Positions 27,061 to 52,000 of a stretch of 64,000 bases of DNA are shown here, piece after piece. Each line of letters opens with the position of its first letter. Positions within the stretch are counted from its first letter, which is position 1. The position numbers and the translations under genes are program-made. The notes below the pieces were generated by a model. The model was not told the DNA's origin. It searched no databases and saw only the letters and a program-made list of their open reading frames with translations. Source of the stretch: Azolla caroliniana (taxonomy: Eukaryota > Plantae > Polypodiophyta); assembly GCA_043228905.1 (NCBI GenBank), contig JBHGNT010000006.1, positions 16,368,001 through 16,432,000 of the forward strand, in the 5' to 3' direction.

Positions 27061-27917
27061 CACAATTCTTGTGCTGCATAGAATCCATCAGATTCTTCAC
27101 ATGGTATCAGAGTGCGTGGTTGCTTGATCAAAGCCCATCGCCTTTGCGTGTGATGTGCCCGATTCTGCGTTCGACATGAACCGACTAATCGTTGTAGCAG
27201 CCATCTACACAACTCACATCAAGAAGAAGAAGAAGCTCAACATGAACACACAGATGGGAAGCGCTCTTCCTACCGAAAAGCTCAACAGAAACAACTTTGC
27301 GTCGTGGGAGTACAATTTGCACCAATACCTTGTCGGCCAAGGCTATTGGAGTTATGTCGAAGGGGCAAACGAGAATTGACCCAACCCAACACATGCTGAC
27401 TACCCAACTTGGGAGCAAGCGGCGAGTCATGTGTTGTACTGCCTTGCATCATGCGTCCATGATCACATGCTCGGCTACATCCAAGAGGTCAAAACACTGA
27501 AGGAGTTGTGGGGAAACCTCAAGAAGATTTTTGCAGCCAACATGACCGCAAGAAAGCTTCAACTCCGTCAAGAGTTGAACGACATACAACAGACAGACAT
27601 GTCAATCGGCAACTGCACCTTGAAGATCAAGGAGTTGTGTGATGCCCTCGGGTCGATCAATGTTAGCACTGACGAGGATGAAATGGTGCAAATTTGCCTC
27701 AGAGGATTAACACCTCAGTTCGGGTCCATTCGGTCGGCTGTGCTCGCAAGGGAGAATCCTCCCTCCTTCTTCGATCTCCAGTCGATGTTGTTGGTCGAGG
27801 AGAATCATGTTTGAACAAGATGCAATGCGCAAGAAGGATAGATGCTCTATTCGAACTTCAATGGAGGAAGAGGACAAGGTTGGGGAAGAAGAGGCTGATT
27901 TGGCCAAGGACGACTAT
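26230..27917 (+). mobile_element. Ty1/copia 5' LTR (26230-27101), PBS (tRNA-iMet) and gag, interrupted by a gypsy LTR
   Basis: TGTTGAGA...TTCACA, then TGGTATCAGAG. Gag EKLNRNNFASW...ARKLQLRQEL is close to the copy at 61293. Confidence 0.9.
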
Positions 27918-30900
27918 TGTCCGCCGGAATAGTAATCGACGGACAAGAGCGTAGGAATAAGAAATACTATAAGATCATAACGCATGTAACGGTTCACGTA
28001 GGAAGCGTGAACGGCTAGATAGACCCTGCATATATAAAGGGCAGAAAACCTCTGATAGAGGGCGCGTGTAATTTTGGGAATGTAAAGAAACGTATCATAA
28101 TAGAATTCTATCTTCTCTGAAAGTCTGTGCATAGCTACGGCTAATTTGCTGTGTGTCTGGAATGCTTGAGCGTGTAAGAACGTAAGTGTAACCATTGCCA
28201 AGGAGTCGGTTGTAGCTGTCTCCCTCATACGCTGATAGGTTACAGGGAGCATTCCCCTACGCATTATGCATAGACGCCTATTCATTGTTCCACAACCACT
28301 TGGAGGTCTAGGTCGAAGGATTGACCGCGAACCGTGTTCCTAATCGGTAACACTTTTGGCACGCTTGGTGATCTTTGTCTTCTCACAGACGAGCAATGAC
28401 GAATGGACGTTTAGCCGCAGACACCCCAGAGAACCAACACGACAAGACCGGCCAATCACAAGGTCCGTCACACGCCAGGCAGAAGAACGTGCACGGCAAA
28501 AGCCTCGCCTCAGCAACCTCAGTACTACCTGCCGTGATTACAAAGGTGATTCTTCGCTTTCCAAATACCTCGACGAGACACGGGGACTACGCTCACCATA
28601 GCCACCCTGTGGTCTTTCCCAACTCGGCGTAGCCCCCAACATGGCCTTTGCCTACCCCCGCTTTAACGGTGAAACCAACGCCGCAACTCATATTCGCATG
28701 TTCCTTAATGTCTGGAATGCGAATCACATGGCACAGAGCCTTTCGGAGGTGGTAGCGCACGATTCGAAAATGACGGAGTTCGGGTTAACATTGGATGGGC
28801 GAGCGGCGTTTTGGCATTCACAGATGGATTTACCAGCAATAACAACCTTCGATCAGCTACAGTCCGCTTTCTTGCGGTTCTTCCATTGGAGGGTTCCACA
28901 ACGTGAAATCCTCGGACAGTTCTACACAATTAAGCAACTGCCGACCGAGGCGATAGCAGACTTCAGCTTATGTTTCCAAAATTTACGGCAGAAACTAGAA
29001 CGGAGCCCCACGGAGGACGAGGCTCGAGAAACATTTCTGGCAGCATTACGCCGACCCATTCGGGCAATGCTCAACAACAATAGCGTGAAAGGGGAAACGA
29101 CGTATATGGTCATTGAACGAGCGTTACAGCTCGAGTTGGACGAGGAGGAGGAAAGGTTTTCTATGTCCTCCTTATGACAAGCGTTACCCCAGGACGAGGA
29201 ACGCCAGTTTCGTCAAGCAATCCAGTGCACGATCTGCTTGAACTCGGGGCATTCCGTAGTGGAGGGCAATATGCGAATCCACTGCCCAATCTGCCACTCG
29301 AAGGCTCACACAATCGAACAATGCGAATACAATATGTTGAATAGAGCCACTCCTGCAGTCCGCAACATGGACACCCAGCGTCCACCACGCCGGACTGAAC
29401 AAAGGAGGCAAGAAGACCAACCACGGTATATGGATTGCAACCCACGCGAGGACTGGCACCACCGGAATCGCCGAAATCACAACGATTCCGAGGAGGACGA
29501 ACCAGAGGACGAGGATTATCGTGGACATCTGAGTTATGCTAAAGGGGCCCGACGCTACGAGAATCACTGGCCGACAAACAAACGGGGCAACTTCAATGGT
29601 TATCATGGTAAGCCGCGGCAATATCGAGATCACCGGCGTTACGACGAAAGCTCAGGAGATGAGCGACACCAGGAACAATGACGGGACCAACAACAACCAC
29701 CGCGTGCGTTCCGACAAACGAGGCCGGACCGCAAGGAGCAAGTAGCACCAGGGGAGCGACACACACCATCAGGAGCTGAGAAGGGTGAATCAAGCATCCA
29801 TTGTTTTATTTGTCAGCAGCCCGGACATTATGCCATGCAATGCCCAACACGCAAGGGAAAGGGACCCGCTGTCAATATGATTACGGCAGAAGTGCAACAA
29901 GTCATGACACGCCAACAAACAAAAACGACTGATTGGGCTGCGCAAGACGAGATATGCTGACAAGCCCAGGCATGGGTGGAAAAAGCAAACGCGACCAATA
30001 CAGAGCGCATGCGGAAGGAGTCCGCGAACGCGAGGGAGCGAGCAGAGGACGAAGGACCGGTCCTAGACCCCATTTGGCAGGCATTAGCGGGCTGCGAGAT
30101 AACGTTAACCATGGAGAAACTGCTGCAGCTAGTCCCACGCTTCCGCCAGACCATGGAAGAACGGGTGACAGGCATACCCGGGGTGAGTATCGCTACAAAC
30201 CTTACAGACGTTAGCGACGGACCGCCGGTAGTGGACCAACACAACGTAGCTATTACATTAATATTACACGGAGAGGAAATTCCTGGATGCGTAATCGACG
30301 GCGGCTCAAGCGTCAATGTAATTAGCGTGAAAACTTGCGAGCAGTTAGGCATTTCAGAATGGGAGGCTTGCCCATTCTGGCTCCGAATGGCAGATACCCG
30401 CTCAGTACGACCATTGGGGTTAATTCGCAAAATAGGCATTATCGTGGGCGGACACCGCTTCGACATCTCGGCGGTCGTCCTCGACTTGGACGCCCCAGGG
30501 GCGTACCCAGTGCTTCTGGGCAGACCATGGCTTCAGGCAACAAATATCAAGTAGAGCTGGCAACACAAGTGTATCAATTTCCGACACGGACGCACCAAGG
30601 TTCGCGTACCTACGAAAGGAAGCACGCCACAACCCAAGGGTATAACACCATTATACGTAGAAGATATAAATATGCTGACTGGGGTGGAGGATGCAAAATT
30701 AGAGGCATACCTAGATGAGCACCCATGGATCATTCCGTTGTTCGAAATCGACGTCATCGCAACCGCGGCAGGATATGCCACGACCACTATTCTCCACGAT
30801 GAGGCTTACGAACCAAACCCAGAGTCCATATTGGAACTCAGCAGAGCACAGGCGGCATTCGAAAGGGAAATGGAGATTTCACGACGAGTCACCGCTTCCG

Positions 30901-33900
30901 CCCTGGAAGAAGTAAATGTGGGTACGGAATCGGAGCCCCGCTTCCTCTCCATCGCAAAGGAATTAAGGCCGGACCATAGAAACACGATGATCGCACTACT
31001 CATGAAATATAAAGATGTGTTCGCTTGGGCTCACGAGGACATGAAGGGGTTAGATCCCAAGTTCTATAAGCATAAGATCAATTTAGCAACCGACGCGAAA
31101 CCCTACCGCATGAACCCAAACTACGCGACCCGCGTGAAAGAAGAAATTGACAAGCTCCTGAAGGCGGGGTTCATACGGCCAGTTAAACAAGCGACATGGT
31201 TAAGCCCGATAGTGGTCGTTCCAAAGAAAAACGGAAAAATACGGGTATGCGTAGATTACTGAAAATTAAACGCCGTAACCATTACAGACGCATTTTCCGT
31301 ACCCTTCACCGATAGCGTACTGGACGCCGTCATAGGACATGAGATATACAGTTTTTTAGATGGCTTCAATGGCTATAACCAGGTACGCATGCATCCCGAG
31401 GACCAAGAAAAGATAGCATTTGTCATGGACTCGGGAGTCTATGTGGCAGTCGTCATGATGTTCGGGCTAAAGACGGCGCCGGCAACATTTCAATGAACAA
31501 TTACGGAGATCTTTGGGGAATACATTCTGGCGTTCATGCAAGTTTTTTTAGACGACTTTGTGGTATATGGGAGAACAATAGACCATTTTACGCACTTACA
31601 ACTGTGCCTGGAAAGTTGCCGCACCGCACGCTTAAGCCTGAATCCCGCGAAATGTGCTTTTGGCGTGACCAGCGGGACTCTCCTGGGCCATATAGTCAGC
31701 AAGGAGGGAATAACGGTTGATTCGAACAAGATATCCGTGATTACGCAAGCCAAAACTCTGACAAACGCCAAATCGCTCAGCAGGTTTTTAGGACAAATAC
31801 GTTGGCATAGTCGGATGATACGGTATTTGGCGGACTTCGCCACGCCGTTACATGTTGCCGTACATTGGACTCCTTTCCAATGAACTGCAACGGAGGATAA
31901 GGCCTATGAGGCACTTAAGATAATGCTCACATAGGCCCCCGTCGTACAACCACCAGTTTGGGCGAAGCCATTTCACGTGTTCGTCGACACCTCAGACATA
32001 GCAATAGGAAGTGCACTAATGCAGCTCACTGAACCAAACTGGTACCGGCCAATGTACTACGCTAGTCACAAATTATCAACAACAGAGCGTAACTATTCCA
32101 CAACGGAGCAGGAGGCGCTAGGGATGATCTATAGCATCAATAATTTCCGGCATTATTTACTAGGAAGGAAATTCACGTTCCACGTGGATCATTCGGCGCT
32201 GCTGTATTTGGTGGAGAAACAAGCCCTAATGGGGAAATTGGCACGATGGATGCTGCTGCTCCAAGAATTCGATTTCGTAATCCAGCACCGACCAAGGACG
32301 CAATACGCAATGGCAGATTTTTTGAGCAGACTTGAGAATGGCGAAACAGTACAGAAAGATGACGACGATTTTCCGGACGCTGACATCTTGCGAGTAGCAG
32401 CACTAGCAAAAAGAACGGAATCGACCTTTCCGAACCAGTGGCTTATGGAAATGACGTACTTTTTGACTACGGGACTTCCTCCACCACAATTACGCATGGA
32501 CGAGAAGAAATGACTAGCCGTCTGAAGCCGTCACTTCTGCCTCGTCGAAGGCGTTTTATATCACAAAGGAAGTGACGGCATTTGGCGACGTGAGGTACGT
32601 CAGGATGAGAAGGAAGCAGTTTTACGGGAGGCGCACTGCGGCACGGCAGGCGGCCATTACGCGGGTGACGTTACAACCCGGAAAGTATGCCAGGCAGGCT
32701 TCTGGTGGCCAACAATGCAGAAGGACACATCCGAGTATTGTAGAAAGTGTGATTTGTGTCAACGGATGGGCTAGCCCGCGGAGGGCGCAAGGATGCCACA
32801 CCAGCTCGTATTACCGCTCGACCCCTTCAAAAAGTGGGGATTGGATTTTGTGGGCCCCTTCACACCGGCGGCGGCCCGTACAGGCAATAAATACATATTG
32901 GTAGCCACGGATTATTGCACCAAGTGGGTAGAAGCAAAGGCACTACGTGAAAATACGACGACCGTCACAACCAGATTCCTTTACGAGCACATCTGGTGTC
33001 GGTTCGGTTGTCCGATTGAGCTCATCAGTGACCAGGGGAGTCACTTTCTCAATACGGTGGTTCGGGAACTAACACATCATTACGCAGTAGTCCATAAGAA
33101 GAGTACGCCATATTATCCACAGGAGAATGGGTTAGCAGAATCCACCAACAAGACGTTGCAGACCATTTTGAAGAAAATCGTCAATGAAAATAGAACGGAC
33201 TGGGATACCAAATTACAGAGTGCGTTATGGGCGTACAGAACCAGCTACAAAACAAGCATACAGTCAACACCGTTGTCGCGAAAATACGACGAGGATACGT
33301 GAACGTTGAGGCAAGACCCCGGGGCCTTTGTCTAGAGGATATTAAATTCGTGTATTTATATACTAAGAATTAACCGAAATGAGAAAGATTAACAAATTTC
33401 ATTAATAAAAGGGAAAGAAAGATTACAATCAATCCCAAGATTGGGATTACAAAAGTTTTATCTTATGGAGATGATTAGAATAATAGATTAGAGGAAATAA
33501 GAGATTATGATTCTTGAGTGATATGGCTTTGACAAGGAATTTTGGATTTTGAGAGATTGCTTCCGTATAGAAATTATGGTTTACTTGAGAGATAGCTTCC
33601 GTAGGGAAGATTAGGGTTATTGGCTTCGATAAGATAAGAGAGCTCCCCAACAAAAGAAAAAAAATTTAGATAATATGGAGAGTGAGTCCTAGTGTAGGAA
33701 AAAAAATAGAATAAATATGGAGTTCTCCCTTGATCATAGCCTTTCCACTTTTTCTTGCATGGCCTCTACTTTTAGTTGCCTAGCTTTTTCTTTTGGTTGC
33801 ATGTGACTGTCCACATGACCTTTACTTTTTCCATGCACTCCTTCTTTAGTTGCTTGCGTCCACATGGCCTTTACTTTAGTTCTCTTCACTTTACTTTAGT

Positions 33901-34589
33901 TTGTTGCATGATCCAATCTTTCGTCCGTCCGCGTCCAACCTCGTCCGGTAGCCGGTTCCATTTTGCTTGCCGGTCAGTTCCGGTTCCGGTTTTGCTTGCC
34001 GGTTCCGGTTCCGGTTTTTCTTGCCGGTTCCGATTCCGGTTTGCTTGTCCGTTCTGAATCCGATTTTGCTTGCCGACCGGTTCCGATTTTGCTTGCCGGC
34101 CGGTTCTAGTTTTGCTTACCGGCCAGTTTTCGGATTGCATACCGGCCGGTTTTCGGATTTGCTTACCGAACCCATTTTCCGAATTTGCTTACCGGCCGGT
34201 TTCCGATTTTAGGGAATTTGGCCACCATCATCCATCAAGACAAAGTGGCCAAAGTGCTCTTAGCACAAATGAAAAATGAGGGAGCTCAAGGTGTTTATAT
34301 AGCCAGGGCCTTAACTTTCCTATCTATGTGGGATAGTTCTAATTGCCCTATCTAATCAAACTTTATTTTCTTATAACTTGATATGTATTTCTCCATTTTG
34401 TTTATAGTAAAATACATTTTGAAGCTCTTGAGTATATCCATCTTTCTATAGTAAGTTACTAATCTAATCTATAATAATTATTTTATTATTATTTTACATA
34501 GTGTGTGAAGATTCACACGACATTCACCCCCACCAAACCTGCACATCCACCGGTATGTGCCAATTTTGGTGAGGATTCATTTTTGTTTA

Positions 34590-37500
34590 CTATACTTTTT
34601 CATCGATGCTTAAGACTGAATCGTCAAAAGCTTCGAATCCAATTTCTATTCTATCTCTTCTCTTGAAGATCTTGATTCTTTTACCGGCAATTGGCAAGGC
34701 AAGTGGTGTACCATCCAGTTCTACTAAATGATATGTTGCATTATCTTTCACTTTCTTCACCACATATGGCCCAAACCATCGTTGTGAGAATTTTCGAGCC
34801 GTACTATGTTGGTTATCTAGGCTACTGTCATAGACTAGCACCCAATCTCCTTCAACGATTTTCCTCGGCCGAAGTCGATGTCGTTTATTGAAGTCTTTCT
34901 TGTTCTTTAGCCTTGCATTCTTTAGCCACGCTTTAGCCACCTCTACATCTTCCAAATTCCACTCTAATTGTCGAATCCTCAATGCTAGAAGATCTTCTCT
35001 ACTTATCTCATCTTGCCATGGCAATGCAAACCATGAAATAATACTTTGTTCTACCGGCATTATTGGCTTTTGTCCGAATATGAGCTCTGCCGGCATGTAT
35101 CCCGTCACCGTGCTATGAGTAGTCCTGTCAGCCCATAATGCAAATGGCAATAGACGTGGCCATTCTCCTATTTTCCCATGGCAAGCTTTCACTAGAGCCT
35201 TCACAATCGGTCCATGTCCACGTTCCACCTTCCCATTTGCTTCCGGATTATACGCCATGGTAAGAGATAATTTGATTCCCATCCTCGAGAAGAATTCTCT
35301 AGCTTCATTGGCGTCCAACTCGCCTCTATCAGCCACTATCTTGCCGACGCATCCATATCTGCAAATAACATCTTCAAGAAGGAATCGGCATACTGATGAT
35401 GTCTCCTTAGTTCTTAATGCTCGCCCTTCAACTTGATTGGTAAGATCCTCTCTCGCGAGCACAAGATACTTCATCTGCCATCGTCCCATTGGCATCATCA
35501 CTATGTCCACCATCCACTTGTAATGCATAGCCAACGGGTAAGTCGGATGAAGTCCATCTCGATGGCAAATATTCGAAAACATTTGACATTCCTTACATGT
35601 TTCCACATAAGCTGCTACATCTTTGTAGATGCCCGGCCACCAATATTTCTCCTTAAGCTTCGCAAACATAGCCCATATTCCTCGATGGCCTGCAAAAACA
35701 CTATCATGAAATTCAGACATTAGTTTTTGTTGGTCTTCTAGCTTGCAGACAACTCTCATCGGAGTCCCATTCTTCTTTTTTGCATGCTTCCAAAGAGCTC
35801 CATTCTTAAGGAAATACTTGTATGCTTTCTTCCGAATTCGATGGATGTCTTCCGTCGACCATGATTCATCTTTTTGGAGAGAACTCAAGTATTTCCCGAC
35901 CTCCACGAATTCGTCTTCGTAGTCGTCTTCTATGAAAGTAATCAACACCCGAGCATAGGAACTTGCAAAGAAATCCAGGCCAACATCATCTTCATCAGAA
36001 TGTCGATCTTCTTCTCCGTCGTATCTCGCTCGTGATAGCATGTCTGCAACGACATTACGCTTCCCAGCTACATGACGGATCTCGGGGTTGAGTGATTTGA
36101 TATATGCAATCCAACACAACATGGCAATATCCGGTGTATTACAACCAGATATCATACCCAAAATTGGTAGGCAATCTGTCTCAATTATGACTTCTGCTCC
36201 AATAAGGTAATCACGATCAGATTTGATTGCCGAGACGATCCCCCATAGCTCCCTCTTCACTTGGGCATACCTTCTTTGCCTGTCACTTAACACTTTCGCG
36301 CCAAACCGAATTGCATATCGGTTGCAATCTTCATCTTCTTGGTTGATAACCCATCCAATTCCGATTGGACTAGTATCCACAGTCACGAAAATGGGCTTGC
36401 CGTATGAATAGTCCGCTTTCCGTAATGCAGGTGCCTCCATCAATAATTTCTTTAGCCTTCGGATGGCGATTGTATGATCGCTCGTCCATTCAAACATCCG
36501 CTTCTTCTTTAGTAGACCATATAATGGCTCAGCAATGTGGGCGTAGTGTGGAATCCAAATATGATAAAACGCGCATGCTCCAAGGAACCTTCGAACCTCC
36601 GTTTGGGTTACATATTCTTCTTTCATGCCTTGAATTGCATTCACCTTGGATGGCGAAGGCTTCCGACCGTATGCTCCACACAAGTGACCTACCACCAGGA
36701 TCTCCGGTTGCCTGAATGCGGATTTTTCTCCCGAAAATGTCAAATTCGCATCTTCGAGCCTTTGGAGCACCTTCTCGCAATTTTTCATATGATCCATGAC
36801 AAACTTTCTACATCCATCCTTATCTTTTGATTCATCCTTCTCTTCATCTGAACATCCTTTTATCGGAATATCATCTAAGAATGGCATCGTGATATCCGGG
36901 ATGCAATCCTTCAAGACCTTGTTCATGGCATTCACCATATGAGCCACCGAGTTCGTTGTGCCTTGAGGTAAGGTACACATCCGCACCAACCCGATTGGAG
37001 TTTTCATGGTTGTAATGTCACGACTGTCGACCGCCAACTGGAATTGATCATAGCCAGAGTAAAGATCACCGATGGAGTAGATGGACCGGCCCGCAAATGC
37101 CTCGGCAAATTCATCCACACTTGGACCGATTCCAGCATTCCGAATTGTCACCTTGTTGACGGGTTGAAGATCTTGAATGAATCGCAACGATCCATTCTTC
37201 TTTGGCACCATGAACCACCTATTAGAATAAGGAGTGTTCCACGGTTCTAGAATTCCCATCCTCACCTTCTCCTTTAAGAGCTCGATCAGCTTCGGTAGGT
37301 GTGCTCTTGGAACCAGTATCGGTTTCAAATTCCAAGGCACATGCGGCATCGTGAAGATCACCATCGGTTCTACCGTCCTTGGATTAGCACACCCTATTTC
37401 TTGTGGGAAAAACGCGAAAGCCTTCCCATGTCTTTCAAGCATTCCACGAAACATCCGCTCTTCTTCAGGGAGGAGGAAATCCTCCCTTCCAACTCGTAGT

Positions 37501-38045
37501 TTTCCCTTCGTCTCTTCAGTGAAGATGTGACCAATTGTATTTGGGTTCCTTAAGCTTGGATCTTTTGCAACTTCCTTCATCTTTTGCCAGCTATCTTCCG
37601 GTAGCGGAACTACAACTGGCTTGATCTTCCTATCCACGATTTTATATTTTGTGTTGACTTCGACTTCCTCTATCAAGATGCCTCGATGATATTCATCGAT
37701 GATAGTATACATGTTGACGGAGTTAACCGAAATCACATGTTGATGGTGAGGATAACTCAAATCCACGACTTCCTTGATTTCGCCGATGGTGTCGTTAAAT
37801 GAGGCTTCCTCCAGAATATATGACACGAATTCTTCTTCTTCGATTATGCTTTCTTCTTTCAGCACCTCCTCGAAGTCTTGTATCTGACACTTTTCCTTCT
37901 TGTTGAGTAGTCTAAGTTTGCATGCGCCACCAAGTGTGACGCATGTTGCTTCTCCTTGCAATCCACGCACTTTGCTTCCTTGTGGGGACTTATGATTGCT
38001 CGGACTATTTGTGCCCCATGCTTCAATAGTCCGCTTTAAAAATCC
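34590..38045 (-). CDS. Retrotransposon Pol (RT-RNase H-integrase), in the -1 frame relative to Gag-PR
   Basis: 1126-aa ORF, open upstream to the gag stop. RT LPQG...PFLDDIPIKG, RH VDTSP...YAQVKRELWG, IN HHCC, MVD...ADRGE...NGKVERGH and GPY. Confidence 0.92.
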   Translation of the reverse strand, partial: GFLKRTIEAWGTNSPSNHKSPQGSKVRGLQGEATCVTLGGACKLRLLNKKEKCQIQDFEEVLKEESIIEEEEFVSYILEEASFNDTIGEIKEVVDLSYPHHQHVISVNSVNMYTIIDEYHRGILIEEVEVNTKYKIVDRKIKPVVVPLPEDSWQKMKEVAKDPSLRNPNTIGHIFTEETKGKLRVGREDFLLPEEERMFRGMLERHGKAFAFFPQEIGCANPRTVEPMVIFTMPHVPWNLKPILVPRAHLPKLIELLKEKVRMGILEPWNTPYSNRWFMVPKKNGSLRFIQDLQPVNKVTIRNAGIGPSVDEFAEAFAGRSIYSIGDLYSGYDQFQLAVDSRDITTMKTPIGLVRMCTLPQGTTNSVAHMVNAMNKVLKDCIPDITMPFLDDIPIKGCSDEEKDESKDKDGCRKFVMDHMKNCEKVLQRLEDANLTFSGEKSAFRQPEILVVGHLCGAYGRKPSPSKVNAIQGMKEEYVTQTEVRRFLGACAFYHIWIPHYAHIAEPLYGLLKKKRMFEWTSDHTIAIRRLKKLLMEAPALRKADYSYGKPIFVTVDTSPIGIGWVINQEDEDCNRYAIRFGAKVLSDRQRRYAQVKRELWGIVSAIKSDRDYLIGAEVIIETDCLPILGMISGCNTPDIAMLCWIAYIKSLNPEIRHVAGKRNVVADMLSRARYDGEEDRHSDEDDVGLDFFASSYARVLITFIEDDYEDEFVEVGKYLSSLQKDESWSTEDIHRIRKKAYKYFLKNGALWKHAKKKNGTPMRVVCKLEDQQKLMSEFHDSVFAGHRGIWAMFAKLKEKYWWPGIYKDVAAYVETCKECQMFSNICHRDGLHPTYPLAMHYKWMVDIVMMPMGRWQMKYLVLAREDLTNQVEGRALRTKETSSVCRFLLEDVICRYGCVGKIVADRGELDANEAREFFSRMGIKLSLTMAYNPEANGKVERGHGPIVKALVKACHGKIGEWPRLLPFALWADRTTHSTVTGYMPAELIFGQKPIMPVEQSIISWFALPWQDEISREDLLALRIRQLEWNLEDVEVAKAWLKNARLKNKKDFNKRHRLRPRKIVEGDWVLVYDSSLDNQHSTARKFSQRWFGPYVVKKVKDNATYHLVELDGTPLALPIAGKRIKIFKRRDRIEIGFEAFDDSVLSIDEKV
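37983..38045 (-). promoter_or_regulatory. Programmed -1 ribosomal frameshift signal (slippery heptamer + pseudoknot)
   Basis: G GAT TTT immediately before the gag TAA, 5-nt spacer, 9-bp stem CGGACTATT/AATAGTCCG, and loop TGGGG complementary to downstream CCCCA. Confidence 0.8.
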
Positions 38046-40252
38046 GAGGATTCGCCTCCAAGGCTATCTCGGTTCCTTTCATGATTAGCTCGCACCGTCA
38101 GGAATTGAACGGATCTTTTACTATCAAGACTCTTGACGCGCGCGAAGGCCGCTCCATTATCGAACACCTTGGTCTCCATCCGGGACGATGTTATATATGG
38201 TTGTCCTAGGATGACGGGATGTGAAGCCGAGTCTTGCACGAAGAAGTGTTGATCAATCTCTACATCCCCGATCGTGACTTTAACGTTGGGGCAAGCTCCG
38301 TACAAGTCCTCCGTAGCCTTCGTCGCTGCTCGAATCTTCCATCCGTGGTTTGTATTAATCGGCCATCTTCCTTTCTTGTAGAACTCGGTCGACATGAGGT
38401 TGATCTCAGAGCCATGGTCAATCAAAGCGACCACGGTCTCTTTCTTCTCCCCGATCTTCACCGGTGTCTCCGTTGTCACTCTTGCCCAATGAGGTCGCGA
38501 GTAATGGCTATCCGCCACCACTTCTTCTTCTTCCTCCTCTTCCAATTTTGCCATGGTTATGGCACTTGTTTTCACCTCCTCTTCATCAGATTGTTGCCGC
38601 TTCCTCTTAATAAGGTCCACGATAGTATCATGGAACTCATTCTTCGCGATCCCAAGTAGCTCTCTCAAGGTAAGGTCGACATGACTATCTAAAACCTTCT
38701 CCTCAAGGACCTTCCGCAAGTTAGTTGTTTGTTCTATGTCCGACCTTAGCTTGTAAGTCGGTGCCGCTCGTTCTTTTCCTTTCTTCGTTGATTCTTCAAC
38801 TTCCATCCGAGCAGGTTGGTTCGATCCACCGGGCTTCATGTTTGTTTCACCAATCTCTTTTCTTGGGATAGGTTGCGGTGGCCCTTCTTTCCCTCCGTTC
38901 CTCGTGTTAGGTCGCTTTGATGTGCCATCTTCTTCACCAGTTTTCTTCCTCTTCTCTTCGACAAGGGCTTCATAGGTGTCACACACAACCTCCGCAAAGC
39001 TTGTGTTTTCGTCGAGTGGATCTGACCATCCGGTTGCTCGTCGCACATTTCGGTCAGCAAGTTTTAGATCCTCCGAATTGATTTTGCCTTTTTCTTCGCA
39101 CTCGAAGACCGTTGGCCAAAACCCAGCTCCTGGCTTGATCATTTTAAGATTCTCTTTTCCAACTCCTATCCCAGCCGAAGCGGCATAGTGAATAGCCTCC
39201 ACATGCCTTGCATCTTCTTCTTCTACAATCTTTTTCAGCCCACCTCTTCCGAAGTTCACTCGTAGTGGCTTCCGGGTCTCGCTTGAGTGAATCATGTTGC
39301 CATCCAAATAGACGACATTCTTGCGGATCGCATCTTGCAAGTCAGCACATTCCCTTCGTGAGTGTTCAAAGCTATCGCACCACACACATCTATACGCTTC
39401 TTTTCCCTTGGGCCCGCGTCGACCTAAGTTGGCTAGCGATACCGCTTCAAACTTCTTGGAGAGCTCTTCGATTATAGACTCCTCCATTGCTTTCTTGTCG
39501 AAATTGTTGATCGGCTTACTAGGCTCAATCGTCGTAGGTGCGTTCTTCCACAATTGTGGATTCTCGACCTCAGCTTCCTCTTGCCATTGTCGCCGCTTAT
39601 CAAAACGGCTGCAAGCCTTCTTCACCGCCGCCCAGTCCGCTACCAAACCATTTGGTTGTGTTTCGTCCTCCAAGAAACTACCCAATTCTCGCCGATCTTT
39701 CGCATCCATTGCCTTTAGGAATAGTAAAACTTTATCTCCGTCGAGAACTCGTTGCTCAACACTCGGAAGTCGGTTGTACTTCTGGTCGAATTCGGCATAA
39801 ATTCCCGATGCACACAGATTCTTCCCTTTCTTCTCGATCCAATTCATTAACATATGCCGAGTCATCCGCAATGCGTCTTCAAGCATGTATTCAGTGAGAA
39901 GAGCCCTTTCGAACTCCGCCCAAGTTGCATGCTCGTTTTGGATCTCCATCACGCGCTCACGGATCCCGGGTTCTACCACACGCTTAAAGCTTGAAATTTG
40001 TTTTGGATCATGGACATCTCTTTGTTGCATCTCATTCCGGTAGGTAGCAAGGAGATTTGTGATGTTCTTCCCACCGAATCTTCCAACTGTCTCCACAGTT
40101 CGGTCAACAGCTTTGTCGACTAAAGCCTCCCGATCTCTCTCTTTCAGCATGAATCCGACGACGGACACCATGCCTTTCGTCAATTCTTCTCCTTGAGTTC
40201 CACATGTCGAAGCCATCTTCGTACTAGATATCCTCCTACTGCCTTGTTTCAC
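38036..40252 (-). CDS. Retrotransposon Gag-protease polyprotein (first ATG at 40216)
   Basis: 738-aa ORF with CVWCDSFEHSRREC knuckle-like motif and aspartic protease ALIDHGSEINL...VILGQPY. Confidence 0.88.
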   Translation of the reverse strand: MKQGSRRISSTKMASTCGTQGEELTKGMVSVVGFMLKERDREALVDKAVDRTVETVGRFGGKNITNLLATYRNEMQQRDVHDPKQISSFKRVVEPGIRERVMEIQNEHATWAEFERALLTEYMLEDALRMTRHMLMNWIEKKGKNLCASGIYAEFDQKYNRLPSVEQRVLDGDKVLLFLKAMDAKDRRELGSFLEDETQPNGLVADWAAVKKACSRFDKRRQWQEEAEVENPQLWKNAPTTIEPSKPINNFDKKAMEESIIEELSKKFEAVSLANLGRRGPKGKEAYRCVWCDSFEHSRRECADLQDAIRKNVVYLDGNMIHSSETRKPLRVNFGRGGLKKIVEEEDARHVEAIHYAASAGIGVGKENLKMIKPGAGFWPTVFECEEKGKINSEDLKLADRNVRRATGWSDPLDENTSFAEVVCDTYEALVEEKRKKTGEEDGTSKRPNTRNGGKEGPPQPIPRKEIGETNMKPGGSNQPARMEVEESTKKGKERAAPTYKLRSDIEQTTNLRKVLEEKVLDSHVDLTLRELLGIAKNEFHDTIVDLIKRKRQQSDEEEVKTSAITMAKLEEEEEEEVVADSHYSRPHWARVTTETPVKIGEKKETVVALIDHGSEINLMSTEFYKKGRWPINTNHGWKIRAATKATEDLYGACPNVKVTIGDVEIDQHFFVQDSASHPVILGQPYITSSRMETKVFDNGAAFARVKSLDSKRSVQFLTVRANHERNRDSLGGESSDF

Positions 40253-42829
40253 GTTAGGTTCACCAAAGATGTCGCGAAAATACGACGAGGATACGTGAAC
40301 GTTGAGGCAAGACCCCGGGGCCTTTGTCTAGAGGATATTAAATTCGTGTATTTATATACTAAGAATTAACCGAAATGAGAAAGATTAACAAATTTCATTA
40401 ATAAAAGGGAAAGAAAGATTACAATCAATCCCAAGATTGGGATTACAAAAGTTTTATCTTATGGAGATGATTAGAATAATAGATTAGAGGAAATAAGAGA
40501 TTATGATTCTTGAGTGATATGGCTTTGACAAGGAATTTTGGATTTTGAGAGATTGCTTCCGTATAGAAATTATGGTTTACTTGAGAGATAGCTTCCGTAG
40601 GGAAGATTAGGGTTATTGGCTTCGATAAGATAAGAGAGCTCCCCAACAAAAGAAAAAAAAATTAGATAATATGGAGAGTGAGTCCTAGTGTAGGAAAAAA
40701 AATAGAATAAATATGGAGTTCTCCCTTGATCATAGCCTTTCCACTTTTTCTTGCATGGCCTCTACTTTTAGTTGCCTAGCTTTTTCTTTTGGTTGCATGT
40801 GACTGTCCACATGACCTTTACTTTTTCCATGCACTCCTTCTTTAGTTGCTTGCGTCCACATGGCCTTTACTTTAGTTCTCTTCACTTTACTTTAGTTTGT
40901 TGCATGATCCAATCTTTCGTCCGTCCGCGTCCAACCTCGTCCGGTAGCCGGTTCCATTTTGCTTGCCGGTTGGTTCCGGTTCCGGTTTTTCTTGCCGGCC
41001 GGTTCCAATTTTGCCTACCAGCCGGTTTCCGGTTTGCTTGCCGGCCAGTTCCAGTTTTGCTTACCGGCCAGTTTCCAGTTTTGCTTGCCGGCCAGTTCCA
41101 GTTTTGCTTACCGGCCGGTTTTCGATTTGCATACCCGTTCCGGTTCTGATTTTGCTTGCCGGCCGGTTCCAGTTTTGCTTACCGGCCAGTTTTCGGATTG
41201 CATACCGGCCGGTTTTCGGATTTGCTTACCGAACCCATTTTCCGAATTTGCTTACCGGTCGGTTTCCGATTTTAGGGAATTTAGCCACCATCATCCATTA
41301 AGACAAAGTGGCCAAAGTGCTTGCCGGTTTGCTTGCCGGCCGGTTCCGGTTTTGCATACCAGCCGGTTTCCAGATTTGCTTACCGGACCCATTTTCCGGA
41401 TTTGCTTACCGGCCGGTTTCCGGTTTTAGGGAATTTGGCCACCATCATCCATCAAGACAAAGTGGCCAAAGTGCTCTTAGCACAAACAAAAAATGAGGGA
41501 GCTCAAGGTGTTTATATAGCCAGGGCCTTAACTTTCCTATCTATGTGGGATAGTTCTAATTTCCCTATCTAATCAAACTTTATTTTCTTATAACTTGATA
41601 TGTATTTCTCCATTTTGTTTATAGTAAAATACATTTTGAAGCTCTTGAGTATATCCATCTTTCTATAGTAAGTTACTAATCTAATCTATAATAATTATTT
41701 CATTATTTTTTTACATAGTGTGTGAAGATTCACACGACACCGTTTCGACTAGCGTTTAGGCTGGAGGCTATGATGCCGGTCGAATTTCAGGTACCCAGTT
41801 TGCGGATTCAGGTACGGAACCGACTATCAGAAGCCAAGTCGGAGGAGGTACGGCTCCATCAACTACTCGAACTCGGGGAAAAACGCATACACAGCATGGC
41901 TATGTTGGAGCAGGAACGACGACGACATAAAGCTATTGTGGATCGACATCAGAATGCAAGGGAAAAGGAGTTCGTCGTGGGTCGGGCGGTGTTGGTTTTC
42001 CAAACCCGCATGGGCCATATGCCAGGGAAGTTACGATTCCGTTGGACCGGCCCATACTGGATAATTGAAGCGGAACAAGGCACGTTCCAACTAGGTACGC
42101 TGGCTGGGGAAGTAGTACGGCAAAAGGTGAATGGGTTTCGGCTCAAACCTTACCTGGGTTGTGGAACAACAAATAGGCATCTATGCGTAATGCGTAGGGG
42201 AATGCTCCCTGTAACCTATCAGCGTATGAGGGAGACGACTACAACCGACTCCTTAGCAATGGTTACACTTACGTTCTTACACGCTAAGGCATTCCAGACA
42301 CATAACAGATTAGCCGTAGCTATGCACAGACTTTCAGAGAAGATAGAATTCTATTATGATATGTTTCTTTACATTCCCAAAATTACACACTCCCTCTATC
42401 AGAGGTTTTCTGCCCTTTATATATGCAGGGTCTATCTAGCCGTTCACGCTTCCTGCATGAACCGTTACATGCATTATGATCTTATATTATTTCTTATTCC
42501 TACGCTCTTGTCCGTCGATTACTATTCCGGTGGACAACACCTAGCACGCCTGTGGGATAGTGCCATGGCACGTCGGACCCATCCCGTTAATCCTCTTCCA
42601 AAATGGCCTGGATGTTTGGCTCTGCTGCGGTGTCCACGTCCGGAGGCAACGTAGGGTCCGTAGGTGCATCGTGGTGTGGCTCCCCTATTTGGTCGGACTG
42701 GTTTCTCCCGGTGTCGCAATTGTCGTGTGTGGGCGGTTCGGGTACGGTGGGCTCTTCTTGAGCTAGTGGGTTGGGTATATTCCTTTGAATAGGTTCCCAC
42801 TCTGATATCCGATCATCATCTACCTCTCA

Positions 42830-46285: not shown

Positions 46286-47452
46286 TAGATTGTATTGCAA
46301 ATTGGCCTAGCCAAATGTATATAGGCTTATGATCTAGTGTATGCACACTTACATATGTTTGTCCAAATATGGTTGTGTGTTCTTAATTTCCCTAAATGTC
46401 CTTGAGCAATCCTCAAAAAAGTCTAAGTAACTATAAGTGCTATTTGAGTGATTGATATGAGCGGATTGAGTTTTATAGGAATAACATTAAATGGAATCAT
46501 CATCAACAATGCCACAACTATATAGGATGACATGTGATTACCTCACTATACCAGCATCATCAATACTTATTGAAGAGGTTACTTGAGCTGCAAAAATGAC
46601 CTTTGATAACAAGATCAAACTACACTCATGCACATTCAAAGCCAAAATGTGTATTCGATCATGGATGGATGTTTTACAAGAATCTAATGTTCAGTTGATA
46701 GATAATTTTCACACTACTTATGAAGAACTAATAATGAATTTGGATGATCTTGTTGTTGAAGATGAGGTAATAAATTTTTTTATTTTTTATTCCATAAAAA
46801 TTATGCTCCATTGGTATTAAAATTAAAAAGGCCAGAGGCACTATATAAATAGAATATAATATTTTCCATCTCTACAAGTATATATCATCAAAGAAAGGAC
46901 CAAATATAAGTGATGGCATATGGCAAAATAAGGATAATATAATCTATGAAAACAAATCTCTTGCCAATAACACCTTTGCTATACCACATATAAAGGGGAT
47001 ATACTCGGGGACACTACCATCAATCTCCCCATAACCATACTCAACATATAAACAAATTCCCGCAGTCCAAGAGAATACATTTCTTGTTTGTAGTCATGCT
47101 CAACATACCCTGGTTGTCCACCCTATTTGTTGGTAGTCCTGCTCAACATATATACCCTGTTTGTCCACAAGATATTGCTTTTGGCAAATTTTTGTACATC
47201 AAGGCCTTCTTCATCTGTTGTAGTTGAAGACACCAAAACAGTCCATGATGCACATGCCGCTTGAGGTAAAACATGATTGGCCGCCTTGGACAACCCCAAT
47301 CTATCCTCTCCTATGTCGAAACGACCATGTCCTTCATCTCCACGATCATTGAAAATATACTTGTATTGAATATCCATACCATCAACACTCTGGTTTATCA
47401 CAACCTTCACGTTCTCACAACAGCCATGCGCCAGTTACACCACAATCATCTA

Positions 47453-48907
47453 CCCACTCATGATAGTCGGCTTCGACCCCCCCACCATCTTCAGTTATCC
47501 TTATCATAGAAGAAATTCTTCATTCAGTCCACATCAGTCATCTCGCTTATTAACATCTTGCCAATGCCAATGTCCACGAAAATCCTGTGTTAATAACAAA
47601 AAATTAGTCCAAAAGTTTCATCACCCACTCCTGATAGTCGGCTTCGACCCCTCCACCATCTTCACTCATCCTTATCATAGAAAAATTTCTTCATTCAGTC
47701 CACATCAGCCATCTCGCTGATTAGCATATTGCCAATGTCCACGCAAATCCTGTATTAACAACAAAAAATTAGTGTAAAAGTTTCCTCACCCACTAATGAT
47801 AGTCGGCTTCGACCTCCCCACCATCTTCACTCATCCTTATCACAGAAAAAACATTCCTTTGTTCAATCCACATCAGCCATCTCGCCGATTAACATCTTGC
47901 CAATGTCCACGAAAATCCTGTATTAACAACAAAAAATTAGTCTAAAAGTTTCCTCACCCACTCATGATAGTCGGCTACGATCAACCACCATCTTCCCTCA
48001 TCCTTATCCCAAAAAACAATTCTTCATTCAGTTCACATCAGCCATCTTGTCAATTAGCATCTTGCCAATGTCCACGGAAAAACTGTATTAAAAACAAAAA
48101 TTAATCTAAAAGTTTCCTCGCCCACTCATGATAGTCAGCTTCGACCTCCCCACCATCTTCACTCATCCTTATCACAGAAAAATTTCTTCATTCAGTCCAC
48201 ATCAGCCATCTTGCCGATTAGCATCTTGCCAATGTCCATGCAAATCCTGTATTAACAACAAAAAATTAGTGTAAAAGTTTCCTCACCCACTCATGATAGT
48301 CGGCTTCGACCTCCCCACCATATTCACTCATCCTTATCACAGAAAAAAATTCCTTCGTTCAGTCCACATTAGCCGTCTCGCCGATTAACATCTTGCCAAT
48401 GTCCACGAAAATCCTGTATTAACAACAAAAAATTAGTCTAAAAGTTTCCTCACCCACTCATGATAGTTGGCTACGACCCCCCACCATCTTCCCTCATCCT
48501 TATCACAAAAAACAATTCTTCATTCAGTCCACATCAGCCATCTTGTCGATTAGCATCTTGCCAATGTCCACGGAAAAACTGTATTAAAAACAAAAATTAA
48601 TCGAAAAGTTTCCTCACCCACTCATGATAGTCGGCTTCGACCCCCCACCATCTTCCCTCATCCTTATCACAAAAAACAATTCTTCATTCAGTCCACATCA
48701 GCCATCTTGCCGATTAGCATCTTGCCAATGTCCACGGAAAAACTGTATTAAAAACAAAAATTAATCGAAAAGTTTCCTCACCCACTCATGATAGTCGGCT
48801 TTGACCCCCCCACCATCTTCACTCATCCTTATCACAGAAAAATTTCTCCATTCAGTCCACTGCAGCCATCTCGCCGATTAGCATCTTGCCAATGTCCACG
48901 AAAATCC
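47453..48907. repeat. Tandem satellite, ~165-bp monomer, ~8.8 copies
   Basis: Unit starts CCCACT at 47453, 47624, 47789, 47957, 48121, 48286, 48453, 48617 and 48781. Confidence 0.95.
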
Positions 48908-49099
48908 CCATCAATCATCTCACTGTCATCGAGTATCCCCAATAGCTTAAACCTACAGAAACAAACATGAATGCACACTCTCCTCTCCTTATGAAAATCA
49001 TTATTAGTCATCCCTATCTAAGGTAAAGCATCATTATTAGTCATCCCTATCTAAGGTAAAGCATATGCTTTACTATCCGCACCAATCATATCGGAGATT

Positions 49100-52000
49100 A
49101 CCGCCAAAAGCTTCTTTTATGAAAAGACTCTTGCTATGTCCCAGAATCACCTCTTCCATGTTGATTCATGTTGTGTGCTCTAAGGATGGTGTTGGTGGCA
49201 GGAACAACCAATGAGGAGGTATGTAATTCCACTTGACATTAACCTCTGCATCCAAGATGATAGGAATAGATGACCAAACTCTTCTAATTCTCCTTCTTTT
49301 TCGACTATTTGTGTTTCCTGATCCCTTACAATTGTCATAATCACCTTTAACCGTATGTACCAATAGGTCCCAAAAAGACTTAACTTGTTCTACAACATGA
49401 GTATTTTCATCCTTGTATAGCTTGGAACACCTAGCTTTCCAAAGAACCCATAAACCCAAAGAGGAAACAATTTGCCAAACATAACTCTACAAGAAGAACT
49501 TGATTCCCTGCAAGGAACTTGAACCAACATATACTTGCAAACTTCTCACATGTAAAGACAAAGAAGAATGCTGATAATGATAAAAGGTCGTGTGTTGATC
49601 CAACATTCCCCAAAAGACTACATCCCATGTGAAGAAAGCCGAGGTATACTTACGACCTAAAAGCCTAAGAATTCAAAACCAAAACCTTTTAGCGAACACA
49701 CATTCCCAAAATACATGATGCAATGACTCAGATGCAAACCCACACATAACACATGACCGATCACACATTGAACCCCTCAATAGTTCACCTACTGGCAATG
49801 CCTAATGAATCATCAAACAACGAAAATGCAATATCTTATTCATACATTTAGTTACCCAAAACCGTTTCCAAAACATCCACATATGAGATGATGAGACATT
49901 ACCTTCCTCCCAATACTTTTTTCCCATTGGGACCAACTCGGTCTAATTCAACATAAAGTTTCTACCCAACGCCACCGAATATGAGAAGAATGGAAGGATC
50001 TTATTCGCTGTGTCAGACATGGACAATTTCCAACCATAATCTGATGGGTCCCACTGTAGATCGACAAGTGGCCTAGAGTGTAAAACCCAAATATGAGATG
50101 CATAGTTAGCAATTAACAGACTAGGATCGATCACTAGCAACTGCTTTGCATCGGACATAATTGGAGACTCCTCCGCCACTAATATCAATCTACCATTGTC
50201 CAAAACTTCATAGCAATAAAAATTGCCATTATGATGATATAAACGAGCTCTTATAAGTATATTAAATGTCGAAAACATATCGTACCAACTTTGAAAATGA
50301 TCAAACTGCAAAGTTGGTAGTGTGACCTGATACACCATGGACAATTGAGAGAACATTATCCTTGCCCCTCTTAAATTAGACAACATATTCTTTTGGTTGT
50401 GTGCTGAAGTTTGTAAAAACTGTATCCAATCCGCAACTGTACGGGTTGGCACACTATCCATTGCTGCCCAAGATAACCTCGGTTGTAGACGCAAAACACA
50501 TGCAGCTTCATCAGTAAATAATTTAGGATTCCATATCAAAGGTTCATGCATGAATTGATGATAATTTTTCGATGGCAAGAAAACAAGTGCTTGTCGAAGA
50601 TTTTCCCATGCCCGAAAAATTCCACTAAAGAAATGTAATGATCCAACATTGGACTTAGGTAATGGAAAATTTGAATTAAAAAACCACCTAAGACTATCAT
50701 GCCATTGCCCTCCTACTGAGGGCTTGACCTTATGTAAGAGTTGAATCCATAGCTTTTTCCATAACTCATCTCCTGGCAATAAACTCCTAACAACATGTTT
50801 AGCAATTAAGGCTTTACTTTGCATAAAAGGATCAATCAAACCTAGACCTCCTTTCTATTTAGATTGTATAAGAACCGACCAAGCTACCTTTGCTACATAA
50901 TTGTCTGCAATAGTGTTCCCCCAAATGAAATTACGTACTAGGCGTTGAACTTTAAGCATTATTGACCTAGAAAACAACCAGGTAGATGCTATATACCAAA
51001 TCGAAGACAAGATCACTGAGTTAGCTACAACTACGCGTCCTGCTAAGGATAACTTCTCCTTGTTCCAATATATTAACTTGTTCCTTAATGTTAACAACTC
51101 TGCATTTAAACCCAAACCCACTCTACAACCTAAATATCTAATGGATTGACCATGAGGTATCCATGTAAAACCTGAGGTAGGTATATTAACTAGCAGATCT
51201 CCCAAAGCGATCCAAAAACCCGATGATTTATCCCAATTTATCAATGCTCCGAATGCATGTGAGAAATCATCCACAGCTTTTTGTACCTGTAACATATTAA
51301 CTTGTGAGGCTGCAACATATAGAGTTGTATCATCAGCAAACTCACTATCCACGCCAGCGTTTTCCACAAATAGTGCTAAACCATTAATATTTACATCTTG
51401 AGAATTTAGATGTACTGAAAATGCTTCAGATACTAATGAAAACAGAAAGGGAGCAAGTGGACATCCTTGTCGCACGGACCTTGACATAGAAAACCGCCTA
51501 CCAATATCCCCTGCAAATAAAAGAGAACTATGTGCATGACGATATAATGTTGACACTCCTCGTATCCATGTGTTGGGAAAACCCATCCTAACCAATGTTC
51601 CCTCCATGAAATCCCATTCCACTCTATCATAAGCTTTTTCAAAATCAAGAAATAACATTGCTAGATCTTGCTTATGTAATTCAGCAAATGCCACCATTTC
51701 CCAAAAAAGAATAATATTGTCAAAAATACTTCGCTCTTTCATAAAATCGGTTTGGGAATCATGAATTAGCTCCGGAAGATAAGGTTGTAACCTTCTAGCT
51801 ATCATTTTTGCTAATATCTTATAAATAACATTCAACAAAGTAATTGGTCTCCAATGACGAAGTTCTTCTAACTGTCCATTTGTTTTAGGAATCATATAGA
51901 TTAACCCCTCAGTCCATTCTTGTGGCATATTTCCTAAGTCTAAGATCTATTGATAAGCTTTAGTGATGCCATCACCTATCAAATCCCAATATTGTATATA

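Follow-up and report, generated by a model that had tools for sequence, protein, structure and literature searches.

A candidate −1 frameshift signal between protease and reverse transcriptase in Phygy-type Ty3/gypsy elements of seed-free plants

The element and its Gag-protease/Pol junction

The analysed stretch of DNA, hereafter the window, comprises 64,000 nucleotides of the Azolla caroliniana contig JBHGNT010000006.1 (positions 16,368,001 to 16,432,000 of the forward strand; assembly GCA_043228905.1). It carries a minus-strand Ty3/gypsy retrotransposon of 8,466 bp in total, in which a predicted −1 frameshift site lies between the frame of Gag and protease and the frame of Pol. Both long terminal repeats (LTRs) have TG..CA termini and are located at 41739-40270 (5′ LTR) and 34522-33274 (3′ LTR) on the minus strand. 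The element is bordered by two matching copies of a 4-bp target site duplication (TSD), CCGT, at 33270-33273 and 41740-41743 on the plus strand.

The first open reading frame (ORF1) is located at 40216-38036 on the minus strand and encodes, from its first AUG, a 726-aa Gag-protease with a CX2CX4HX4C knuckle at 39388, a DUF4100 domain and the C-terminus ...SSDF-stop. Its stop-to-stop span is 40327-38036; upstream of the first AUG the frame is open for 37 codons (40327-40216), across the LTR end and the primer-binding site. ORF2 (Pol; 38045-34590, minus strand) is in the −1 frame and comprises an N-terminal region of ~130 aa, reverse transcriptase (RT; FLDD at 36881), RNase H, an H2C2 zinc finger and an integrase core. 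A Pfam scan at E 0.01 gave no chromodomain match in ORF2. The open frame extends over 38063-34590 and overlaps ORF1 by 28 nt; counted from the slip site it contains 1151 codons, with the first AUG at codon 112. A first-pass annotation, made from the sequence alone, had reported an open −1 frame with a Pol of 1126 aa. The open frame stands, and the figure of 1126 agrees with counting from a GTG that is residue 32 in a frame of 1157 codons.

A retropepsin-like protease occupies the end of ORF1 (38476-38060, minus strand), with a D-H-G-S motif at 38419. Its match to Pfam Asp_protease_2 (E=0.0018) is weaker than the curated cut-off and a sequence search against the PDB gave no significant match; the fold search alone succeeded. 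Specifically, an AlphaFold model with a predicted local distance difference test score (pLDDT) of 76 was matched by Foldseek to the Ddi1, XMRV and HIV proteases, with E values of 3.5e-6 to 6e-4. The domain ahead of the shift is, by its predicted fold, a retropepsin. The usual form of the retropepsin active site is D-T/S-G; across the clade of the window element, D-H-G-S or D-N-G-S recurs.

The putative slippery heptamer G_GAU_UUU (GGATTTT in the DNA) is located at 38045-38039 on the minus strand and is directly adjoined by the ORF1 stop TAA (38038-38036). The spacer between the heptamer and the 9-bp stem is 5 nt. The 5′ arm of stem 1 (38033-38025) pairs perfectly over 9 bp with the 3′ arm (38009-38001), and its conserved core (38032-38025) begins 6 nt past the heptamer. 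Within the stem-1 loop, TGGGG (38018-38014) forms the 5′ arm of stem 2 and is complementary to CCCCA (37987-37983), so that the predicted structure is an H-type pseudoknot, with all arms on the minus strand. The positions given in the first-pass annotation for the heptamer, stop, spacer, stem and loop were all confirmed on this strand. Its perfect 9-bp stem holds for the window, and the stem 1 that is conserved among relatives is 8 bp long; the outer pair C38033-G38001 is formed in only 17 of the 51 junctions that were aligned.

When 5,600 start positions along the element were scanned for H-type pseudoknots, the junction site scored best. The minimum-free-energy fold, which cannot represent pseudoknots, kept stem 1 and paired the slippery site with the 3′ arm of stem 2 (z = −1.76); a ribosome sitting on the slippery site would be expected to melt this competing pairing. 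No Rfam match was obtained in 37800-38200 up to E 10. For 37900-38200, no indel was listed in contigs from four DNA runs; 40 of the 81 variants were displayed, and of these a single one falls in 37993-38062, a change of TAA to TAG.

Conservation of the junction among relatives

Relatives were collected by a protease-alignment scan of metagenomes, from which the best 80 of 186 loci, 60-99% identical in protease, were used. A stop in the protease frame was found in 79 of the 80. Excluding L030, which has no stop inside the locus, and 16 loci too short for Pol placement, the Pol frame was testable in 63 loci and was −1 in 58, +1 in four and in frame in one. Of the five exceptions, L062, L063, and L074 have a break further downstream behind an unchanged heptamer and stop; the other two are L058 and L064. 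The first-pass annotation had named a single gag-pol frame in other intact copies as the observation that would speak against a shift; the only in-frame locus, L062, is broken and retains the usual heptamer and stop. An in-frame heptamer was absent from 7 of the 80 junctions (L015, L018, L036, L042, L060, L079, and L080), owing to point changes, upstream breaks or rearranged ends. Removal of duplicates and of one truncated junction left 55 distinct junctions, 51 of which entered alignment A2, with four near-duplicates left out.

Conservation of the heptamer extends to its nucleotides. The last Asp-Phe before the stop, located by protein only, was written G_GAU_UUU in 43 of 48 distinct loci; two of the remaining five had G_GAU_UUC and three another first base, and GAC was used in none. 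Ten loci were without such a dipeptide. For control Asp-Phe pairs elsewhere in the same loci, the G_GAU_UUU form occurred in 2 of 104 and GAC was used in 62. At conserved Asp and Phe positions within the protease, both codons occur. The stop of ORF1 was TAG in 27, TAA in 21 and TGA in 7 of the distinct junctions. This alternation of three stop codons argues that the stop is kept by function. Past the slip site, the −1 frame was open for 100 codons in 46/55 distinct junctions and the 0 frame in 0/55. The first AUG of Pol ranged from codon 4 to codon 112 across 35 long Pol frames, with no conserved start, and the overlap of the Gag-protease and Pol frames in intact −1 loci was 13-124 nt.

Protein records gave a similar picture for assembly-called ORFs. 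Among 56 Gag-protease ORFs called in assemblies, 51 ended in DF/GF or 4-5 residues later, two ended in VF plus one residue, and three did neither. Likewise, 15 of 62 named gene models ended at the site, including those of Physcomitrium patens, Riccia sorocarpa, and Adiantum nelumboides. The fused gene models join at varying points: their markers are 149-265 residues apart, where a −1 shift would give 257, a spread in keeping with predicted introns (these are protein models only).

A scan of viral contigs gave no relatives, and that of prokaryote genomes gave two stray contigs, one of them usable. These two (L112 and L113) come from a cyanobacterial metagenome-assembled genome and a Streptomyces record, and are most likely contaminating contigs in the two bacterial assemblies. 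L112, which belongs to this separate collection, has the heptamer, a TGA stop and a Pol open for 917 codons in −1.

The pseudoknot was sought as an H-type structure with perfect helices, starting 4-8 nt past the heptamer, with a stacking energy ≤ −23 kcal/mol. It was predicted in 49 of 55 junctions versus 42 of 5,500 dinucleotide shuffles. In the alignment of 51 sequences, 96.6% of the cells of the 8-bp core of stem 1 were paired and 6 of its 8 pairs showed two-sided changes, and 76.5% of the cells of stem 2 were paired, with two-sided changes at 4 of 5 pairs. Pairing fell to 39-49% when the partners were slid by 1-3 columns. Arms were also swapped among 22 cluster representatives with a median nucleotide identity of 66%: cognate arms scored −14.6 versus −10.1 for swapped arms in stem 1, and −13.2 versus −10.7 in stem 2. 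For each stem, 0 of 20,000 permutations reached the pairing of the cognate arms. The H-type pseudoknot proposed in the first-pass annotation, together with the covariation it had suggested looking for across family copies, is consistent with these compensatory changes in both predicted stems.

The distant subfamilies represented by L055, L058, L059, L068, L073, and L078 build the same predicted topology from different letters. In L112, a stem 1 of wholly different sequence has 11 of 12 positions paired behind the same heptamer. We regard this rebuilding of one apparent topology from different letters as stronger evidence than the statistics. The core of stem 1 starts 6 nt past the heptamer in 53 of 55 junctions and 5 nt past it in L058 and L064, by a spacer motif that was defined after the alignment had been seen.

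Probable programmed frameshifting and the alternatives

Programmed −1 frameshifting is very probably the explanation of the split between Gag-protease and Pol, as judged from the comparison of these sequences. A signal of heptamer, stop and predicted H-type pseudoknot that extends throughout the Phygy-type Ty3/gypsy elements of seed-free plants best explains the pattern among relatives. The heptamer lies in the zero frame as X_XXY_YYZ, with G_GA as an accepted exception (PMC5009743). The predicted, co-varying 3′ pseudoknot follows after a spacer of 5-6 nt, within the canonical range of 5-9 nt, and the conserved coding frame in −1 is without a start of its own.

In the proposed mechanism, the pseudoknot would fold in vivo and cause a pause in which tRNA-Asp on GAU occupies the ribosomal P site and tRNA-Phe on UUU the A site. 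The two tRNAs would then slip by one base, to GGA and UUU, and reading would go on as ...Asp-Phe-Leu-Lys-Arg. A further contribution to the pause may come from the adjacent stop, as has been reported for pea enation mosaic virus (PEMV), which has the same heptamer (PMC5009743). A minority of ribosomes would produce a Gag-protease-RT-RNase H-integrase fusion of ~1,875 aa (726 + 1,149). Most would terminate and yield the 726-aa Gag-protease, so that protease would be made at Gag levels and RT and integrase alone would be rationed.

Several points weigh against this explanation. G_GA is an imperfect XXX, and the P-site re-pairing from GAU to GGA is partial. Host sampling is narrow, with a single numbered assembly series supplying 76 of the 80 loci. 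No perfect-helix pseudoknot was predicted in 6 of 55 junctions, the shuffle and swap statistics are inflated by relatedness, and the structure was derived from these same sequences. Stem 2 is short and consists mostly of G/C runs; its register varies (loop 3 of 10-16 nt) and its covariation is weaker. Of the named gene models, 47 of 62 end elsewhere than at the site and many continue into Pol. Finally, protease and RT are in one called ORF in P0108 and in the distant P0284 and P0286. P0108 has one member, with an RT 56% identical, and is broken in integrase, with Gag, protease and RT in its one called ORF. It still has an Asp-Phe downstream of the protease. The distant P0285 and P0288 start without protease, and our guess from their sequence is that P0284, P0285, P0286, and P0288 are fungal in origin. 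Kinship with Ylt1, whose likes have been described in fungi (PMC2864245, PMC3248453), was also considered.

The weaker conservation of stem 2 bears on a second possibility, namely that the shift is programmed and stem 1, with the adjacent stop, is the only stimulator, stem 2 being dispensable or unformed. Stem 1 is far better conserved, stem 2 has 5 bp in the window element and varies in register, and the best nested fold of the free RNA engages the 3′ arm of stem 2 elsewhere. However, the stem-2 arms co-vary across subfamilies of differing sequence (e.g. L055, L058, L059, L068, and L073), the cognate arms beat swapped ones in all permutations, and the spacing suits an H-type knot in 49/55 junctions. 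We consider a stimulator without stem 2 improbable.

Splicing is a route to Pol in Ogre elements, where an RNA lacking the Gag-protease stop has been shown, and gene models of Riccia and P. patens fuse protease with RT. The junction studied here has no non-coding spacer, since the frames overlap in intact −1 loci, and the joins in the gene models vary from gene to gene. In the 450 nt upstream of the stop there is one donor-like AG|GT, which is located inside the protease, and splicing offers no reason for a fixed heptamer followed at 6 nt by a stem. Such a spliced RNA is very unlikely to be the source of Pol. About 12% of each of three poly(A) raw-read runs of related label gave 41-57 reads per run; most were partial, hardly any covered the junction, and they weigh neither for nor against splicing.

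RNA structures close to gag-pol junctions can take part in packaging. The structure might accordingly serve packaging or initiation, with Pol translated separately by re-initiation, internal initiation or from a subgenomic RNA; besides such packaging roles, an in-frame AUG just ahead of the junction in L064 would fit. Nevertheless, the first AUG is unconserved among the 35 loci, at codon 112 in the window, most junctions have a −1 frame that stays open past the heptamer, and initiation leaves the synonymous-site fixation of G_GAU_UUU unexplained, which gives separate translation a very low probability. Lastly, the split could be a mutation of this copy, or an error of assembly, in an element with a single ORF, the structure being due to chance. 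This reading draws on the one-base indels in T runs that are common in dead copies and on far-away single-ORF relatives (P0108, P0284), but is refuted by the identical frame relation in 58/63 loci down to ~60% protease identity, the three alternating stops, and the four DNA runs free of listed indels.

Programmed −1 frameshifting is the reading applied to the window element; one subclade of its relatives deviates from it. L058 and L064 group in a supported clade (100/99) of two families and read CAG GUU UUU (G/U)AC UAG at the junction (L058:2836-2903 and L064:2498-2565). In these two, the −1 frame closes after 2 and 7 codons and the open Pol frame, in +1/−2, has 1153 and 1100 codons. The spacer is one base shorter, which places the stem-1 core 5 nt past the heptamer. 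The change of frame and the loss of a spacer base amount to a single event and count as one observation; the weight lies in its persistence. Both loci keep the strongest class of predicted pseudoknot. Their Pol sequences are 82% identical, with a synonymous divergence (dS) of 1.16 and a ratio of nonsynonymous to synonymous divergence (dN/dS) of 0.088, which indicates purifying selection. Among the cluster members listed, five have a full 724-aa Gag-protease ending in VFD and four a 1152-aa Pol from an overlapping codon; several members with intact ORFs show that the layout is not an error of one contig. The Gag of L058 itself has an earlier stop.

A switch to −2 frameshifting in L058 and L064 is possible. 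The −2 frameshift of arterivirus nsp2TF has the consensus RG_GUU_UUU (PMC5644247), which AG_GUU_UUU of L058 and L064 fits, with the downstream Pol in the +1/−2 frame. The arterivirus shift uses a protein complex and no RNA structure, whereas L058 and L064 keep a strong predicted pseudoknot. This comparison concerns these two loci alone, as the window element is a −1 case. In a cassette from human immunodeficiency virus (HIV), shorter spacers raise −2 over −1 shifting (PMC5009743). It is also possible that Pol is reached in L058 and L064 by a +1 shift or another route, for which L064 alone offers an in-frame AUG just upstream. That Phygy elements run on a pseudoknot-driven −1 shift after protease and that L058 and L064 switched to −2 through the loss of one spacer base is, as a combined account, about an even bet in our view. 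If true, it would be a natural and long-maintained case of shift direction being set by spacer length, which has so far been demonstrated with engineered cassettes, and would give a retrotransposon a −2 shift.

Phygy lineage, genomic setting and significance

Phygy elements are non-chromovirus Ty3/gypsy elements with a 4-bp NCGN TSD, a length of 7,656-9,968 bp and a tRNA-Trp primer in 81% of elements, and their coding layout is entered in the table of the survey as ND (not determined) (Neumann et al. 2019, PMC6317226). The window element has a CCGT TSD that fits NCGN at both ends, its 8,466 bp are within this range, and its coding region fills the internal part with no extra ORF. The domain order is GAG-PROT-RT-RH-INT, without a chromodomain or second RNase H. 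Named relatives occur in Physcomitrium patens, Riccia, and Adiantum, with 57-65% identity in the protease region for the P. patens proteins. In these features the element matches the Phygy lineage. It resembles the described elements in TSD, size, the lack of an extra domain and relatives in P. patens; the −1 overlap, heptamer and pseudoknot are absent from the description given there, and the relatives found here reach liverworts and a fern. Three other assignments were rejected. RLG1 of P. patens has a chromodomain (PMC7466625); Troyka elements have a 3-bp TSD and CG..CG termini and animal hosts (PMC12440569), as opposed to the 4-bp TSD and TG..CA of the window element; and membership in Ogre/Retand (Tat) is at odds with the one RNase H region and the 28-nt overlap in −1.

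Ogre and Retand have GAG-PROT followed by RT-RH-INT, split by a spliced spacer or a single in-frame stop, and an extra archaeal-type RNase H (aRH) (PMC6317226). Like the window element, they are plant gypsy elements whose first ORF contains the protease; the spliced spacer or one-frame stop and the aRH set them apart from it and its −1 overlap. The view in the first-pass annotation that a Gag-protease/Pol split is unusual in plants thus holds for the frame break after protease; protease in the first ORF is found in Ogre and Retand as well. Tcn1, Selgy, and SIRE also have two overlapping frames, GAG and PROT-POL (PMC6317226), which implies recoding in plant LTR elements, and a +1 stem-loop is reported for the sirevirus (PMC5009743). 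These elements break before protease, whereas the window element breaks after it.

The pro-pol position of the shift is that of the −1 shift in mouse mammary tumor virus (MMTV) and human T-cell leukemia virus (HTLV) (PMC5009743). MMTV and HTLV need a prior gag-pro shift, whereas a single shift suffices where Gag and protease form one ORF. In alpharetroviruses such as Rous sarcoma virus (RSV), protease is in Gag and one −1 shift is used. The review in PMC5009743 places the alpharetroviral protease in pol. The umbravirus PEMV 2 has G_GAU_UUU, and dianthoviruses, which the first-pass annotation had named, have G_GA sites (PMC5009743). The likeness to PEMV extends to plant ribosomes and a stop just downstream that affects efficiency. 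In contrast to the bulged stem-loop with a partner kilobases away in PEMV and dianthoviruses, the structure predicted here is a compact local H-type knot, in a retrotransposon (PMC5009743).

Compared with L001, L002, L003, and L005 over window positions 34600-40000, close relatives proved to be mosaics. L002 is 91-98% identical in Gag, protease and RT and 64-69% identical in the integrase half, where L001 and L005 are ~75% identical to the window. Either recombination between families or chimeric assembly may account for these three.

The primer-binding site of the window element (40265-40248, minus strand) lies 4 nt past the 5′ LTR and is a putative match to tRNA-Trp. A TGG-led primer-binding motif was present in 39 of 80 loci, and the window copy differs at two adjacent bases from the form common to 37 of these 39; through this deviation it may prime poorly, though its ORFs are intact. 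A pattern scan for a tRNA gene to compare with the site gave 31 loci, none of which is a tRNA gene. A purine-rich tract resembling a polypurine tract precedes the 3′ LTR (34539-34523, minus strand). A 23-nt tandem repeat array is present inside both LTRs (33975-34260 and 40900-41480) with differing copy number, and the 5′ LTR is 220 bp longer. The LTRs differ at 45 of 1,248 aligned columns, and only 6 of these mismatches are outside 33975-34206, where the tandem repeats render the alignment unreliable. The insertion is accordingly recent.

The element was inserted into the integrase of an older, stop-ridden plus-strand Gypsy element (28602-33273 and 41740-42200) with gag, protease, RNase H and integrase, whose frame resumes past 41743. 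A pair of 381-bp inverted repeats, 95% identical, at 27917-28297 and 42157-42537 flanks the entire nest, and a direct repeat (72-76%) links 27242-27875 and 61292-61914. Elsewhere in the window are a plus-strand tandem array (47450-49010) of at least 8 copies of ~165-bp units in a higher-order pattern, a minus-strand element like a long interspersed nuclear element (49943-53383) with endonuclease and RT in a single frame with three stops inside, and plus-strand fragments of a Copia-type pol (62043-63224), of a further Gypsy pol (318-1508) and of an SH3-like retroelement domain (11654-12265).

No literature on frameshifting in Phygy or bryophyte gypsy elements was found, subscription journals and Repbase reports being outside the coverage. 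Plant LTR elements are generally single-ORF or controlled by splicing (PMC5580714, PMC12786077), and a 2003 survey, as cited in a review, listed solely +1 cases in plants (PMC5009743). The mechanism is known; the host lineage and the position would be new. A −1 cassette conserved in moss, liverwort and fern relatives would fill the ND entry for Phygy and would give a lineage that is represented in the model moss P. patens a compact, testable pseudoknot signal. It would also explain why gene predictors invent variable introns at the junction. With more than 50 naturally occurring versions of the cassette, among them a subclade whose spacer is one base shorter and whose Pol lies in +1/−2, spacer length could be tested against shift direction in nature. 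For the elements themselves, a shift past protease would alter particle stoichiometry, with protease at the level of Gag and only RT and integrase rationed.

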